Below are positions 10,598-22,270 of a stretch of 64,000 nucleotides of DNA, piece after piece. This DNA comes from Lysobacteraceae bacterium (GTDB lineage Bacteria; Pseudomonadota; Gammaproteobacteria; Xanthomonadales; BQJN01). The stretch lies in contig BQJN01000005.1 of the NCBI GenBank assembly GCA_021604725.1, forward strand, positions 614 to 64,613, given 5' to 3'. The translations under genes and the position numbers were made by a program. The notes beneath the pieces are model-generated. The model was given only the letters and a program-made list of their open reading frames with translations, was not told the DNA's origin and ran no database searches. Numbering within the stretch: position 1 is the stretch's first letter; each line of letters starts with the position of its first letter.

Positions 10598-11680
10598 ATG
10601 GCCCAACGTACAGCCCTGTATCAAGTTCATGTCGACGCCGGCGCAAAAATGGTCGATTTTGGCGGATGGGACATGCCGCTAAACTATGGCTCGCAAATCG
10701 ACGAGCACCATATTGTGCGCAAAGATGCTGGTCAGTTTGACGTCTCGCATATGACCGTGGTCGATCTGCACGGTGCGCAAACACTGGACTACTTGCGTCA
10801 TCTGCTGGCCAACAACATTGACAAGCTAGCCAGCGTCGGCAAGGCAATGTACAGCTGCATGCTCAATGAGCAGGGCGGGGTGGTCGATGATCTAATCGTC
10901 TATTACCTCGGCGATACCGATTGCCGCGTCGTGGTCAACGCTTCGACACGAGAAAAGGACCTGAAGTGGATGGGCACCCAAGCCGCCGGTTTCGATGTCG
11001 AGCTAACCGAGCGCGCAGACCTGGCCATGATCGCAGTGCAGGGACCGAATTCACGAGAAAAGTTCGCCGCAACACTAAGCGCCAGTGAGCGCGACCAGGC
11101 AATGGCCTTGGGCAAGTTCAGTGCTGCGGCCATCGGCGATTTGTTTGTAGCGCGGACCGGATACACTGGCGAAGACGGCTTCGAGATCATGGTACCGGGC
11201 GATGCTGCGGCCAAGCTTTGGCGCAAACTCAACGAACAAGGCGTGGCCAACTGCGGACTCGGCGCGCGCGATACCTTGCGGCTTGAAGCGGGTATGAACC
11301 TGTACGGTCAAGACATGGATGAGGCCACCTCGCCTCTGATTTCTGGCCTGACCTGGACCATCGCCTGGGATCCGGACGATCGACACTTTGTCGGCCGTGA
11401 TGTGCTGGAAAAGCAGAGGTCTGACGGTGTGGACAGTAAATTGGTTGGCCTGGTGCTGGAAGACCGCGGAGTCCTGCGACATGGTCAGAAAGTGATCACC
11501 GCCGATGGCGACGGTATAGTCACCAGCGGCAGCTTCTCGCCAACGTTGGGCAAGGCGATTGGCCTTGCCAGGGTTCCGAAAGGAGCGGCCGAATCGGCAC
11601 ACGTCGACATCCGCGGTCGACAGTTGGCGGTACGCTTCGTTCGGCCGCCGTTCGTGCGCGATGGCGAGGCGAAAATTTGA
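10598..11680 (+). CDS. gcvT: Glycine cleavage system aminomethyltransferase
   Basis: MVDFGGWDMP, FDVSHM, RTGYTGEDGFE, GLGARDTLRLEAG. Confidence 0.97.
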   Translation: MAQRTALYQVHVDAGAKMVDFGGWDMPLNYGSQIDEHHIVRKDAGQFDVSHMTVVDLHGAQTLDYLRHLLANNIDKLASVGKAMYSCMLNEQGGVVDDLIVYYLGDTDCRVVVNASTREKDLKWMGTQAAGFDVELTERADLAMIAVQGPNSREKFAATLSASERDQAMALGKFSAAAIGDLFVARTGYTGEDGFEIMVPGDAAAKLWRKLNEQGVANCGLGARDTLRLEAGMNLYGQDMDEATSPLISGLTWTIAWDPDDRHFVGRDVLEKQRSDGVDSKLVGLVLEDRGVLRHGQKVITADGDGIVTSGSFSPTLGKAIGLARVPKGAAESAHVDIRGRQLAVRFVRPPFVRDGEAKI

Positions 11681-11766
11681 TTCTCGGCAGGAAGGCTACA
11701 TAGCGCCTGGGTTGGTGCTAGAATCGCCGCGTAATTTGTTCAAATTAGTGTCAGGTAGGACAAGCC

Positions 11767-12156
11767 ATGAGTGAAATCCCCAGCGAACTGCGTTTTGCAG
11801 AAAGTCATGAATGGGCCCGTTTAAACGACGATGGCACGATAACCATCGGCATTTCCGATCACGCGCAGAGCCAACTGGGCGATCTGGTGTACGTGGAACT
11901 GCCGGAAGTCGGCGATGAGGCCACGGCTGGAGATGCCATTGCGGTGGTTGAATCTGTCAAAGCCGCATCCGACGTGTACAGCCCCATTAGCGGCGAAATC
12001 GTTGCCGTCAACGACGACCTGGCCGACGCGCCGGAGCGAGTTAACGAATCGCCGTATGACGATGGCTGGCTGTACTCCGTCCAACCCGCCAGTGAAGGCG
12101 AGTACGATGCCATGATGGATTCGGATGCATACGCCGAATCGTTGGACGACGAATAA
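11767..12156 (+). CDS. gcvH: Glycine cleavage system H protein
   Basis: HEW, lipoyl site [22 protein letters not shown]. Confidence 0.97.
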
Positions 12157-12240
12157 CGCGCCACCTTGACACACGCGCGCCCCACGGCGCGCTCGATACC
12201 GGCCCTTGAAACCCAAGGGCCTCAAAGCTTCGGACCTGCC

Positions 12241-13599
12241 ATGCCTTTCATTCCCCACACTGAAAATGACGTTCGCGAGATGCTCAAGACCATTGGTGTC
12301 GAGCGCATCAATGATCTGTTTGACGAGATTCCACAGTCGTTACGTGTGGGCAGCCTTGACGGCATTCCGGAGGGAATGACCGAGATGCAGGTGACCCGCC
12401 ACATGCAGGCGCTGGCCGCCACTGATGGCACGCCACTGAATTTTGCCGGTTCCGGTGCTTATGAACACCACATTCCGGCGGCTGTATGGGAAATCACCAC
12501 GCGCGGCGAGTTCTACAGTGCCTATACGCCCTATCAGGCAGAAGCCAGTCAGGGAACGTTGCAGGTCATCTACGAATTCCAGACCATGATGGCCAAGCTA
12601 CTGGGCATGGAAGTATCCAACGCTTCCCTGTATGACGGTGCCACCAGCATGGCCGAAGCGATTTTGATGGCAGTGAGGGCCAACCGCAAAGACAAGACGC
12701 AACGCATTTTGGTACCCCGCTCAATTCATCCGACCTACCGCAAGGTGGTGCAGACCATCGTTTCAAGTCAGGGACTGACCCTGGAAGAAATCGACTACGA
12801 TGGCGAAACCGGTACCATCAATCCGGACAGCGTCAAGGCGTGGAAGGACAAGGGATACGCGGCCTTGGTGATCCCACAGCCGAACTTCTTCGGCAACCTT
12901 GAACCAGTAGATGCCCTGACCAATGCTGCACACGAAGCAGGCGCCCTGGCCATTGCCGTGGTCAATCCACTGGCGATGTCGATACTCAAGCCTCCTGGCC
13001 AATGGGGCGACAACGGCGTCGATATTGCCTGCGGCGAAGGCCAACCTTTGGGGGTTCCACTGTCCTCTGGTGGCCCATACTACGGATTGTTGTGCTGCAA
13101 GCAGGCGATCGTACGACAGATGCCCGGTCGCCTGGTCGGTCGCACCACGGATATGGATGGCAAGCCCGGGTTCGCTTTGACCTTGCAAGCCCGCGAGCAG
13201 CACATTAGACGCGGCAAGGCGACCTCGAATATTTGTACCAACCAGGGCTTGGCGGTGACAGCTTCGACCATCCATATGGCGTTGCTGGGTCCGGAGGGCC
13301 TGGAACGTGTGGCGCGCGCCTCGGTGGTCAACACTGCCAGGTTGATGGACCTTGTCGCGGGCATAGATGGCGTTACTGTGCTGTTTCGCAGTCCGCGGTT
13401 TCACGAATTCGTTGTTCAACTGCCGATACCGGCAGACAGCGTCATCGAGAAGATGGCCGCGGAGAAAATCGTCGCCGGCTATGGCATCGGTCATCACTAT
13501 CCGGAGCTGGGCAACGCCATGGCGGTATGCGCCACCGAAACGAAGACCGAAGACGACCTGGCGATGTACGTGGCTGCACTACAACGCGCCATCCAGTGA
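12241..13599 (+). CDS. gcvPA: Glycine dehydrogenase subunit 1 (split P protein)
   Basis: MPFIPHT start, [37 protein letters not shown]; ~450 aa. Confidence 0.93.
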
Positions 13600-19544: not shown

Positions 19545-20168
19545 ATGTCGTCGCCAACTAACACCACAGCACTGATCCTCATCATCGTCGCGATGTGCGT
19601 CGCTGCGCCCAGTGCCAGCGGTCAGATTTATAAATTTGTTGATGAGAACGGCATCATCAACTACACCGGCACCAAGCCGAATCGAGATGACTATGTGGTG
19701 GTGGCCTGTCAGCTCTGCCGCAAGAGCAGGGCAGCCGATTATCGACGCGTACCGCTGGACACCGAGCGTTTTGCCGCCGAGGTCAATCAAGCCGCACGAA
19801 CTCATAATCTGGATGCGGCTCTGCTCAGGGCGGTGATCCACGTTGAGTCATGGTTTGACCCTGCGGCTGTGTCTCGAGTTGGCGCGCAAGGCTTGATGCA
19901 GTTAATGCCGGACACGGGCAAGCAGTACGGCATACGAAATCCTTTTGATGCCGCCGAGAACATTGCGGTCGGAAGCCAACACCTTAAAGAATTGATCGAC
20001 CAGTACGGCGGCGATGAACGCCTGGCCCTGGCTGCTTACAACGCCGGAGCCGGTGCGGTTCGAAAGTACAAGGGTGTGCCGCCTTATCGCGAGACCCGAG
20101 ACTACATCGACCGGGTATCCATATTGCGCGACCGCTACGCTTCCGCCCGAGGCCAGGGCGCGCCGTGA
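19545..20168 (+). CDS. Lytic transglycosylase (SLT domain) with N-terminal DUF4124
   Basis: Signal peptide, IYKFVDENG, VES catalytic Glu, GAQGLMQLMP, AAYNAG. Confidence 0.92.
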   Translation: MSSPTNTTALILIIVAMCVAAPSASGQIYKFVDENGIINYTGTKPNRDDYVVVACQLCRKSRAADYRRVPLDTERFAAEVNQAARTHNLDAALLRAVIHVESWFDPAAVSRVGAQGLMQLMPDTGKQYGIRNPFDAAENIAVGSQHLKELIDQYGGDERLALAAYNAGAGAVRKYKGVPPYRETRDYIDRVSILRDRYASARGQGAP

Positions 20169-21073
20169 ACCGGCGACTACCCAGCCTGTCTTTGCTTCGA
20201 GCTTTCGAACGCGCTGCCCATCATTCGTCGGTCAAACTTGCTGCCAATGATTTGTACGTCACACCTGGGGCAGTTTCTCAAAAGATCAAACAACTGGAAC
20301 AAGAGCTTGGCATTCCGCTATTTCGACGCGAAGGCCGCTCGATCCGACTGACCGCCGCAGGCAAGGGATATTACCGTGACGTGGCCAGAGCCTTTGCTCG
20401 CCTTGAGACCGGGACGCAACGGCTGCAGGATCAGTTTGGCGCCCAGGTGTTGCGGCTGCATCTGCTGCCATTTTTTGCCTCGGCGATCCTGATCCCGCGC
20501 TTGCCGGCGTTTCAGGCCGCGCACCCTGACATCGAAGTACGTATCGAATCCTCGTTCGGGCTCACCGGCGAGCACCCCGAAGGCGCTGACCTGTCGGTTA
20601 TTCTCGGCAACGGCGACTGGCCGGGTCTTAAGTCCAACCGTTTGCTCGACATTCACCTACAGCCGGTCGCCTGCCCTGAAATTGCCGCCACCATTCGACC
20701 TGATCACCCCGAAGATATAAACCAACACACCATTGTTCGGTTCACCTCGAGACTGGATGCCTGGGAGCAATGGACCCGCCAAAGTGCACTGGATTTCGCT
20801 CCGCAGGGGCAATTCGGAGTCGACAGCATGTTCTCAGCGCTAACAGCTGCTGAACAGGGCTTGGGTGTGGCCATGGCGGTGCGCCCGGTGACCGATGAGA
20901 AGATCCAGCAATCCAGTTTGCAGTATGTGCTCAATCACTCCGTACCGGCTATTGACTCCTACTATCTTGTCTACCGCGCGTCCGATGCGGTGCGTCCGGG
21001 CGTGGCTATTTTCAGGGATTGGTTGATGGAGCAGTTCGTGGCGGAAAACCTAACTTTGCCGAGTGGCGAATAA
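20165..21073 (+). CDS. LysR-family regulator, GcvA/AmpR-like
   Basis: RRLPSLSLLRAFERAAHHSSVKLAA...VTPGAVSQ; PRLPAFQAAHPDI; FRDWL. Overlaps the upstream stop (GTGA). Confidence 0.9.
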   Translation: MNRRLPSLSLLRAFERAAHHSSVKLAANDLYVTPGAVSQKIKQLEQELGIPLFRREGRSIRLTAAGKGYYRDVARAFARLETGTQRLQDQFGAQVLRLHLLPFFASAILIPRLPAFQAAHPDIEVRIESSFGLTGEHPEGADLSVILGNGDWPGLKSNRLLDIHLQPVACPEIAATIRPDHPEDINQHTIVRFTSRLDAWEQWTRQSALDFAPQGQFGVDSMFSALTAAEQGLGVAMAVRPVTDEKIQQSSLQYVLNHSVPAIDSYYLVYRASDAVRPGVAIFRDWLMEQFVAENLTLPSGE

Positions 21074-21137
21074 TAGATATTGCCTGAGCACCGTTCGTCG
21101 CTCTAAAATAACCGCTCATCGCGTAAAGACTGTAACA

Positions 21138-21201
21138 ATTAGTTAAACTAAACTGTCGCGCGAATTTATCGATTGTGCCCGTTGCGGCTTATCCGTAATC
21201 T
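21138..21201 (+). promoter_or_regulatory. LysR (GcvA-type) box plus sigma70 promoter
   Basis: ATTAG-N5-CTAAA at 21138-21152; -35 TTGTGC 21173-78, 17-bp spacer, -10 TAATCT 21196-21201. Confidence 0.65.
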
Positions 21202-21207
21202 AGTACT

Positions 21208-21396
21208 CATCTTGAAGTTACGGTTCTTTTCCGGCTTGCTTCACTGATAAGCGGTTTCCGACTTTGCCCCTCATCGTTGGTCCTCCCTCCCGCTTCGAAG
21301 CAAGAGATGCGTTGTCCCCCCGACGCGGACTGAACTATTCAAGATGCCAATCAAGCGCGCCTGGCATCCCCTCTTTAGCCAGGCGCGCTTTTTTTT
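21208..21396 (+). ncRNA. Candidate ~190-nt small RNA with C-rich loops
   Basis: Promoter upstream; 5' CATCTTGAA pairs with TTCAAGATG (21338-46); nested stems; strong intrinsic terminator; no credible ORF. Confidence 0.6.
21353..21396 (+). terminator. Rho-independent terminator
   Basis: AAGCGCGCCTGGC / GCCAGGCGCGCTT 13-bp stem ending in a T8 run. Confidence 0.85.
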
Positions 21397-21448
21397 GTGC
21401 TCAACAAAGCCCTGGCGAACACTGCACAGTCGGCTAACCCCGGTCGAT

Positions 21449-22270
21449 TTATTGTCGCCACTGCACAGTATTGCTCGGGGCGTCCTCGAAATTGCTGCGA
21501 AATGGATTGATATCGATGCCTCCGCGACGACTGAATCGGGCATAGACCGTTAACTGGTCCGGATCGCACTGCCGCATTACATCATCAAAAATTTGTTCGA
21601 CGCATTGTTCATGGAAACCGGCGTGCTGACGGTAGGAAACCAGATAACGCAACAAGTCGGGTAGATCGATCACCACGCCGCTGTATCGCAACAAGACACT
21701 GGCCCAATCCGGTTGACCGGTCACTGGACAAACACTGCGAAAAGCATCGGTCCAAACACTGCATACCGAATCATCCTTGCTCGGGCTGCAATGCAGCAGA
21801 GATTTGTCAATGTGATAGATCTCGCAAGGCACATCCAGATCATCAAGACACTGTCCGGGCCAACGCCGACGCGCCCAGGCTTGATCCCTGTCGACCATGC
21901 TCACCTGAACCGGCGCACCTGCGGTAGCTGAAAGGTCGCGCTGCATATTGGCCAGCAACACCTCATCGCTGCATCGCAAGGTGTTGAAGCTGCCGAGGTA
22001 CAACTTCATCGATTTGGATTCGATCAGGCAGGCTGAGCTCGACGGCACGCGAATTTCGGCACAAGCCACCCTGGGCTGACCATTGAGGTTTAGCCAGGAC
22101 AGTTCCCAGGCATTCCAGATATCTACGCCCTTGTTGCTTTCCTGTTGCGACAACACGAGACGTGCATCAGCTCGCGGGATGCCGTGCAGCACCTCCGGTG
22201 CGTAGGTCGTCGGGTAGTCCACTTGACGACCCAGGGGATTGTTGGCAGTGGCTAGGGATTGATCAGTCAT
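21449..22270 (-). CDS. queF: NADPH-dependent 7-cyano-7-deazaguanine reductase (bimodular)
   Basis: DIWNAWELSWL, IESKSMKLYL, SVCPVTGQPDW, FHEQCVE, RRGGIDINPFR. Confidence 0.96.
   Translation of the reverse strand: MTDQSLATANNPLGRQVDYPTTYAPEVLHGIPRADARLVLSQQESNKGVDIWNAWELSWLNLNGQPRVACAEIRVPSSSACLIESKSMKLYLGSFNTLRCSDEVLLANMQRDLSATAGAPVQVSMVDRDQAWARRRWPGQCLDDLDVPCEIYHIDKSLLHCSPSKDDSVCSVWTDAFRSVCPVTGQPDWASVLLRYSGVVIDLPDLLRYLVSYRQHAGFHEQCVEQIFDDVMRQCDPDQLTVYARFSRRGGIDINPFRSNFEDAPSNTVQWRQ

Follow-up and report, generated by a model that had tools for sequence, protein, structure and literature searches.

What does the DNA between a LysR-type regulator gene and the convergent queF gene encode in a 64,000-nucleotide stretch of a Lysobacteraceae genome (the whole stretch is referred to here as the window)? 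The first-pass annotation had read positions 21138-21396 as an unannotated sRNA of ~190 nt that carries C-rich anti-Shine-Dalgarno loops, is activated by a gcvA-like LysR gene just upstream, and may be an analogue of GcvB. The analyses described below establish that 21208-21396 is a stand-alone, unannotated plus-strand sRNA gene that is absent from Rfam; it represents a family that is new to the RNA catalogues and of an already known kind.

Promoter, fold and terminator of the sRNA gene

The predicted transcript (21208..21396, plus strand, as are all of its features; ~189 nt) begins with a closed 5' domain and runs through a single-stranded linker into an intrinsic terminator. Its promoter consists of the -35 hexamer TTGTGC (21173-21178), contained in a conserved box TCGATTGTGC (21169..21178), and of the -10 hexamer TAATCT (21196..21201), which follows after a 17-nt spacer. 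Further upstream lies a putative LysR-type transcriptional regulator (LTTR) site, ATTAGTTAAACTAAA (21138..21152), an imperfect dyad ATTAG-N5-CTAAA of the T-N11-A type that is centred at about -63. In the minimum-free-energy (MFE) fold the closing helix is formed by CATCTTGAA (21208-21216) with TTCAAGATG (21338-21346), and the inner helices by CTTGCTTC/GAAGCAAG and AAGCGG/CCGCTT. The same fold leaves four C-rich tracts, with C runs of 3 to 6, mostly unpaired in the RNA of the source genome: CCCCTC (tract 1, 21267..21272, 5 of 6 nt unpaired); TCCTCCCTCCC (tract 2, 21281..21291, 9 of 11 nt unpaired), the most anti-Shine-Dalgarno-like of the four; TCCCCCC (tract 3, 21315..21321, 6 of 7 nt unpaired), which forms the loop of a GCGTTG/CGACGC hairpin; and a mostly unpaired tract within the terminator loop (tract 4, 21367..21376). 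The terminator itself (21353..21396) is a G+C-rich hairpin with a 13-bp stem (21353-21365 with 21378-21390) and a 12-nt loop, ATCCCCTCTTTA, followed directly by T8 (21389-21396), as expected of intrinsic terminators. The dyad, the -35/-10 pair with its 17-bp spacing, the helices, the C-rich tracts and the T8 run thus all lie where the first-pass annotation had placed them, and the helices that it had predicted were reproduced by folding.

The MFE of 21208-21396 on the plus strand is -72.5 kcal/mol, compared with -47.6 ± 4.1 for dinucleotide shuffles (z = -6.11), and none of 200 shuffles folded as well; the minus strand stands out less from its shuffles (z = -4.1) and has no T-run after the hairpin. 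A simple terminator scan passed over the hairpin because its 12-nt loop exceeds the limit of 8, and the -35/-10 pair, being below the 9-of-12 threshold of that scan, was missed as well.

Nowhere in the 64-kb window did an Rfam 15 family match at its gathering score. Between 20900 and 21600, relaxing the threshold to E ≤ 10 produced five chance hits to unrelated families (12.5-17.6 bits, E = 1.4-3.4), with neither GcvB nor sX13 matching the locus, and four homologous sRNA loci (see below) likewise had no Rfam match at gathering. A literature search, conducted other than by organism name, found no paper describing the sRNA. The claim that the sRNA had gone unannotated is upheld.

Distribution, covariation and presence in RNA libraries

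The source assembly (4.68 Mb in 210 contigs, 89.6% complete) is the sole member of its family, f1, among the genomes compared. A BLASTN search with the sRNA against 60 genomes of the order matched only the source genome itself, and homologues were instead reached through the LysR gene and the terminator. Among 300 genomes of the order, orthologues of the LysR protein (48-61% identity) were restricted to the sister family f9, where 14 of the 15 genomes carry one; matches in the ten other families sampled were at most 38% identical. Further searches with the protein gave one orthologue among 80 loci in genome contigs and two among 23 in metagenomes, one of which (L114) carries the sRNA. A complete unit of dyad, promoter, body and terminator lies directly 3' of the LysR orthologue in the f9 genomes G131, G083, G066 and G099 and on the metagenome contig L114; in a further f9 genome, G115, the unit is cut by the contig end. 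The sRNA bodies in these units are variable (114-184 nt), and their terminator loops are runs of C and U.

A covariance model of the terminator hairpin (model R1) scores 57 bits at the window terminator and finds one strong copy (38.9-72.4 bits) in 13 of the 15 f9 genomes, so that the sRNA is present in 14 of 15 when the cut G115 copy is counted. The remaining genome, G123 (70% complete), has no strong match and also lacks the LysR orthologue. Outside f1 and f9, the model gave weak matches only: 30-33 bits in 2 of the 135 remaining genomes from the order, and 27.5-31.6 bits in 5 of 150 genomes from other families of the class. A degenerate pattern for the stem, run on 400 genomes of the order, was of no use because, in genomes of high GC content, the controls matched as often as the pattern itself. 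As far as searched, the family thus appears to be confined to f1 and its sister family f9. Both families consist of uncultured marine Xanthomonadales/Lysobacterales.

The terminator stem covaries. In six independently gathered sequences 96.2% of stem positions are paired and 7 of the 13 pairs show compensatory changes; in 15 sequences (14 distinct) the values are 98.4% and 10 of 13, with none of 500 shuffles reaching the observed values and slid controls only 25-50% paired. Fitting to the model, which biases towards the structure, applies to the 15-sequence alignment and not to the six-sequence one. Conservation in relatives, which the first-pass annotation had left to be established, is confirmed for both the promoter and the terminator. 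The body of the sRNA in genus g9 also contains conserved hairpins, with compensatory changes in 8 of 37 predicted pairs. For the window's sRNA the helices of the body are thermodynamic predictions, since no close relative of the source genome was among the genomes compared.

The C-rich tracts differ in their conservation. A C/U tract of 10-20 nt occupies the terminator loop in every homologue, and tracts 1-3 are particular to the source genome. The relatives have one long C/U loop; the window's sRNA has a shorter loop tract, UCCCCUCUUU, plus the three extra tracts in its body, an apparent redistribution of C-rich surface. The four C-rich loops described by the first-pass annotation are thus all mostly unpaired in the predicted fold, and only the one in the terminator loop is a property of the family; the effector part of a C-rich sRNA can be seen to shift within this family. 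GGA motifs were also counted. CsrA/RsmA-sequestering RNAs carry several unpaired GGA motifs; the window's sRNA has a single GGA, which is paired, and no enrichment of the motif. Members from genera g9 and g18 contain 3-5 copies, mostly as A-N-GGA, with only one (L172) exceeding its shuffles (P = 0.008).

The locus is also represented in RNA libraries. Five metatranscriptome runs from four studies had 12-18% of the words sampled from 20900-21700 in common with that interval, and the contigs of four of these runs, one per study, were aligned to it; the remaining run, X2, came from the same sample as X1. Three of them each contain one short contig over the sRNA with 0-1 mismatches, spanning 21208-21361 (X1, 157 nt), 21202-21352 (X3) and 21211-21362 (X4), and all three begin at most 6 nt away from the predicted +1; the flanking genes, including LysR, are uncovered. 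Such contigs give neither the strand nor the true ends of an RNA, a hairpin can break assembly, and DNA carry-over is possible; an abundant small transcript would nevertheless be expected to leave just this pattern across the three studies, which accords with the transcript proposed by the first-pass annotation. The fourth run covers a piece of queF only. Stretches of 20900-21700 that no contig covers, like the contig ends at 21352-21362, carry no evidential weight, and the absence of contig cover over the LysR gene is a weak hint only. Conservation, covariation and metatranscriptome evidence support an undescribed sRNA family in bacteria for which metagenomes are the only source.

The upstream dyad and the neighbouring LysR-type regulator

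All 15 available promoters of the family align without gaps when anchored on the -35 box, and the dyad, the -35 box, the 17-nt spacer and a TAnnnT -10 element are in register in every one. The box takes the form TCGTTTGT, TCTCTTGA or TCGCTTGT, lies 20-21 bp on from the dyad and holds the -35 hexamer; the dyad consensus, aTGAr-N5-yTCAt, obeys the T-N11-A rule. The dyad of the window agrees at 9 of 10 specified positions with ATTAG-N5-CTAAT, the GcvA repeat that was obtained by phylogenetic footprinting of gcvA-gcvB regions and is centred at -65 from the E. coli gcvB start (PMC5002191). The 4.68-Mb assembly contains a single instance of ATTAG-N5-CTAA[AT]. At about -63 from the predicted start at 21208, the window dyad occupies the classical LTTR recognition position and is a putative site for such a regulator, in keeping with the LysR-type dyad described at first pass.

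The gene upstream of the sRNA (20165..21073, plus strand) encodes a GcvA-family LysR-type regulator of 302 aa with the Pfam domains HTH_1 and LysR_substrate; it starts at a GTG that overlaps the stop codon of the preceding gene, for an SLT lytic transglycosylase. Downstream of the sRNA lies queF (21449-22270), in convergent orientation. The glycine-cleavage genes gcvT (10598-11680) and gcvPA (12166-13599) are located 7.5-10.5 kb upstream, close to the 8-10 kb given previously. Against the NCBIfam GcvA model NF008352 the LysR protein scores 252.7-254.8 bits, under the curated cut-off of 288, and a second gene of the source genome, located on contig C163, exceeds that cut-off with 392.2 bits. 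Judged by these scores, the sRNA-adjacent LysR is a paralogue of GcvA, so that the description of the neighbour as gcvA-like holds at the level of the family and not at that of the orthologue. In the f9 genera g9, g18 and g45 the LysR orthologue follows a gene of the sodium:dicarboxylate/amino-acid symporter family.

Does this regulator control the sRNA? The two genes are adjacent and in tandem in 6 of the 15 RNA-bearing genomes (f1 and four f9 genera), and the gene downstream of the pair varies, being queF in the window, a GSDH-family gene at L005 and others elsewhere. In the other 9 genomes, which belong to g9, g18 and g45, the sRNA lies away from the LysR orthologue, mostly behind an M23 peptidase gene. 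Adjacency is thus not universal, and the expectation that homologues would be found downstream of orthologous LysR genes was borne out in part. The LysR orthologue and the sRNA do share the same narrow, family-level distribution, which gives weak support because it amounts to a single evolutionary event. At six f9 loci the promoter of the LysR/symporter operon contained no dyad of the sRNA type.

A further point concerns the match between regulator and site. Relative to the f9 consensus, the half-sites of the window show a mirror-image change (TGA/TCA to TTA/TAA), and the helix-turn-helix stretch of the LysR protein reads TPGAVSQKIKQLE in the window and TPSAVSHKIKQLE in f9, differing at two positions. 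These paired changes in helix and dyad hint that the LysR protein and the dyad are matched to one another, an observation that is only suggestive and stems from a single lineage. The covariation is also inconsistent, since the f9 genome G019 pairs the ATTAG left half-site of the window, which G091 has too, with a LysR helix of the f9 type. On balance, we place the proposal that the adjacent LysR activates the sRNA at a little over even odds.

Pairing, known C-rich sRNAs and alternative readings

Targets were sought in the source genome (G000) among 3541 genes predicted with a custom gene caller whose start calling used a Shine-Dalgarno bonus. Predicted duplexes were no more stable at start regions than within genes. 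Perfect matches of 7-8 nt to the complement of the tracts clustered at -22..+3 of genes, yet the control, in which the complement was read backwards, behaved in the same way (8-mers, 30 versus 39; 9-mers, 10 versus 9), and the enrichment at start sites therefore reflects Shine-Dalgarno-like composition only. The target prediction that had been called for gave no specific signal; 15 genes with seeds of at least 9 nt at -25..+6 are unranked candidates. The source genome contains both hfq and csrA, and the start regions of these genes showed no notable pairing with the sRNA; nor did the start region of the symporter gene that precedes the LysR orthologue in f9 contain a G-rich site. An extended G-rich complement of the 17-nt loop of the g9 RNA was found in none of five f9 genomes. 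Tracts 2 and 4 (UCCUCCC and UCCCCUC) match the AbcR seeds CUCCUCCC and UUCCCCUC (PMC8844928) at 7 of 8 positions. By analogy, short-seed pairing with many ribosome-binding sites is the most likely mode of action.

The AbcR1/AbcR2 RNAs of alphaproteobacteria and their regulator LsrB/VtlR are the closest analogue of the arrangement described here, unrelated by descent. AbcR1 is activated by the product of the adjoining LTTR gene, LsrB/VtlR, with a T-N11-A site upstream of a sigma-70 promoter, and the seeds of AbcR1/2 are unpaired, were validated genetically and block ribosome-binding sites (PMC8844928). The window's sRNA likewise has an LTTR gene in tandem, a T-N11-A box (in 15 of 15 family promoters) and a sigma-70-type promoter. 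Unlike AbcR, it lies in a gammaproteobacterium of the Xanthomonadales, has no AbcR match in Rfam (20900-21600, E ≤ 10), adjoins a GcvA-family regulator and keeps its conserved C-tract in the terminator loop. At 20 loci that carry more distant relatives of the LysR gene, some of them from alphaproteobacteria, Rfam found no RNA family, so the locus has no tie to those of AbcR. The pair would thus be a second, independent combination of a LysR-type regulator with an anti-Shine-Dalgarno sRNA, after LsrB/VtlR-AbcR1, and would depart from the AbcR design in having a GcvA paralogue as its regulator and a GcvA-type box. As such it should be useful both for annotation and for studies of how regulator-sRNA modules evolve.

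Taken as a whole, the reading that we consider somewhat better than evens is that of a new family of trans-acting C-rich sRNAs that is under GcvA-type LysR control and pairs with ribosome-binding sites; the sRNA probably silences messages under the control of the neighbouring LysR. In mechanistic terms, a sigma-70-type promoter would drive the sRNA when a LysR-type activator binds the GcvA-type T-N11-A dyad ~63 bp upstream of the start, the most likely activator being the GcvA-paralogous LysR encoded just upstream. Transcription would end at the intrinsic terminator, which would display a large loop of pure C and U. The C-rich tracts would mimic the anti-Shine-Dalgarno end of 16S rRNA and pair with G-rich ribosome-binding regions, and translation of several mRNAs would be blocked, as with AbcR1/2, sX13 and RepG.

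Other readings of the locus can be weighed against this one. As no terminator separates the hairpin from the end of the LysR gene (stop at 21073), read-through could occur and the region might be a mere 3' UTR with the terminator of the LysR mRNA. This is highly improbable, given that the -35/-10 pair and the dyad are held at fixed spacing at all 15 loci, 9 of them with no LysR gene upstream, and that the RNA-library contigs start at 21202-21211 and stop short of the LysR gene. The sRNA could also be genuine and answer to a different regulator, either the product of the C163 gene or a protein outside the LysR family that recognizes the dyad. The 392.2-bit score of the C163 gene on the GcvA model is in favour of this, as are the agreement of the window dyad with the GcvA consensus ATTAG-N5-CTAAT (9 of 10 positions), the separation of sRNA and LysR orthologue in 9 of 15 genomes, and the lack, at six f9 loci, of such a box in the promoter of the LysR/symporter operon. 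However, the region upstream of the C163 gene contains neither ATTAG nor CTAAT, the dyad found in f9 (ATGAr-N5-yTCAT) deviates from the GcvA consensus, the sRNA shares its narrow distribution with the LysR orthologue, and the tandem arrangement recurs in five genera of two families despite differing downstream neighbours. Control by another regulator is, on this evidence, rather unlikely, and activation by the adjacent LysR remains the preferred reading.

With regard to function, the sRNA might be a working equivalent of GcvB that responds to glycine and represses amino-acid transporters. A GcvA-family LTTR adjoins it, the GcvA-type inverted repeat sits at about -63 compared with -65 at E. coli gcvB, the f9 LysR orthologue follows the gene of a sodium:dicarboxylate/amino-acid symporter family, and GcvB (RF00022) is undetectable in the source genome, where its best match, on contig C6, reaches 18.4 bits and the gathering score is 42. 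GcvB acts through its seed region R1, which is G/U-rich and single-stranded and targets C/A-rich sites. In contrast, the unpaired tracts of the window's sRNA are C/U-rich and include no G/U-rich stretch, the RNA has no match to the GcvB model at the locus, which rejects its identification as GcvB itself, and it is placed in tandem to a GcvA paralogue that scores under the GcvA cut-off, not divergently from a gcvA orthologue. The first-pass annotation had already remarked on these differences in sequence and layout, correctly. Moreover, the symporter start region offers no G-rich site and nothing ties the sRNA to glycine or to amino-acid transport, so the term 'GcvB analogue' can be kept for the promoter architecture only; as a description of function it is improbable. 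Alternatively, the C/U loops could be not mRNA seeds but a decoy that captures a protein with affinity for single-stranded, C-rich RNA. Rho, which prefers C-rich, G-poor RNA, would be the obvious candidate. The one RNA feature conserved across the whole family is the pure C/U loop (a tract of 10-20 nt) on its covarying stem, and this loop has no identifiable pairing partner: specific targets were not found in the source genome, nor an extended G-rich complement in those of five relatives. Against this, short-seed pairing needs no long complement, and each of the characterized C-rich-loop sRNAs (sX13, AbcR, RepG) base-pairs via short seeds; we regard a decoy as an improbable explanation. Its fuller form, a decoy under regulator control that titrates a C-rich-binding factor (perhaps Rho) and so tunes termination or translation globally and not through specific mRNAs, would be a long shot.

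The favoured reading, pairing through short C-rich seeds, has precedents in which the terminator loop itself takes part. The C/U-rich loop of the terminator hairpin of RepG from Helicobacter pylori binds the target, a long homopolymeric G-repeat in one leader (PMC8295292); unlike RepG, the g9 loop has no long G-rich complement in the five f9 genomes. A precedent within the same order is sX13 (RF02232), a 115-nt, constitutive RNA that is always found downstream of polA and whose C-rich loops, including that of the terminator, pair independently of Hfq with G-rich sites near start codons (PMC3771888). Both sX13, with its apical 4C/5C motifs, and the window's sRNA consist of stable hairpins with C-rich apical loops, a similarity of design and not homology, and the window's sRNA differs in lying between a LysR gene and queF and not behind polA. 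Its identification as sX13 was rejected on the lack of any match to the model at the locus (20900-21600, E ≤ 10; threshold, 50 bits). In the source genome as a whole the best sX13 match reaches 18.1 bits, on contig C14, and none is found at E ≤ 1e-5, the level at which the model matches 17 of 18 genomes of family f2. Three g9 genomes contain a sub-threshold sX13-like match (45.5-47.2 bits) at a locus other than that of the new sRNA, so in these genomes an sX13-like RNA and the new sRNA appear to coexist.

Glycine-related genes in the window and its genome

The gene that lies above the NCBI GcvA cut-off (392.2 bits) is located outside the window, at positions 1186-2079 of contig C163 in the same genome (G000), and no ATTAG or CTAAT motif was found in the 1.2 kb upstream of it. 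The genome contains no detectable GcvB. Within the window, gcvT and gcvPA occupy positions 10598-13599; neither a glycine riboswitch nor any other Rfam family was found at its gathering score across the 64 kb.

Neighborhood of the LysR gene and upstream dyads

In four loci of the sister family f9 (L004, L007, L009 and L013), a gene of the sodium:dicarboxylate symporter family, assigned by Pfam runs on L004 and L007, is followed on the same strand, after a gap of only a few bases, by the LysR orthologue. The arrangement in the window differs: there the LysR gene shares bases with the stop codon of an SLT transglycosylase gene. In a further locus (L017, on contig C48 of genome G099), the match to the LysR orthologue is split into two segments in different frames (residues 4-181 and 169-289), the result of a frameshift or of faulty assembly; the downstream RNA is intact. 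Three loci of the f9 genus g9 (L175-L177) carry, in addition to the main dyad, a second one of the same type, ATGAAGCCAATTCAT or ATGAGCAATATTCAT, which is located approximately 90 bp farther upstream of the sRNA promoter.

GGA motifs in the RNA homologues

CsrA/RsmA proteins bind GGA, in the form A-N-GGA, in hairpin loops. The RNA homologues of genera g9, g18 and g45 (L172-L180) each contain three to five GGA motifs, predominantly of the A-N-GGA form, and in g9 their positions are conserved and frequently fall within hairpin loops. L172 is the sole homologue with a GGA count above that of shuffled sequences (5 vs 1.6, P 0.008). The RNA of the window has a single, base-paired GGA; csrA was found in its genome.

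Weak matches to sX13 and to the new RNA at other loci

Three g9 genomes contain matches to the sX13 model (G039:C14:75042-75158, G075:C120:10189-10305 and G107:C156:1791-1907) that score 45.5-47.2 bits, below the gathering score of 50 bits, at loci distinct from that of the new RNA. These sub-threshold matches suggest that sX13 relatives may range more widely than the families in which the model reaches its cut-off.

The covariance model of the terminator hairpin of the new RNA (R1) also gave weak matches in three other gammaproteobacterial families: L194 (1089-1133, minus strand), L195 (794-868, plus strand) and L196 (1501-1549, minus strand). No relative of the window's LysR was found at these loci, and none of them matched Rfam. 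Each match is a terminator hairpin with a C-rich loop, and L194 and L196, which resemble each other, carry additional CCUCC-type tracts 5' of the hairpin.
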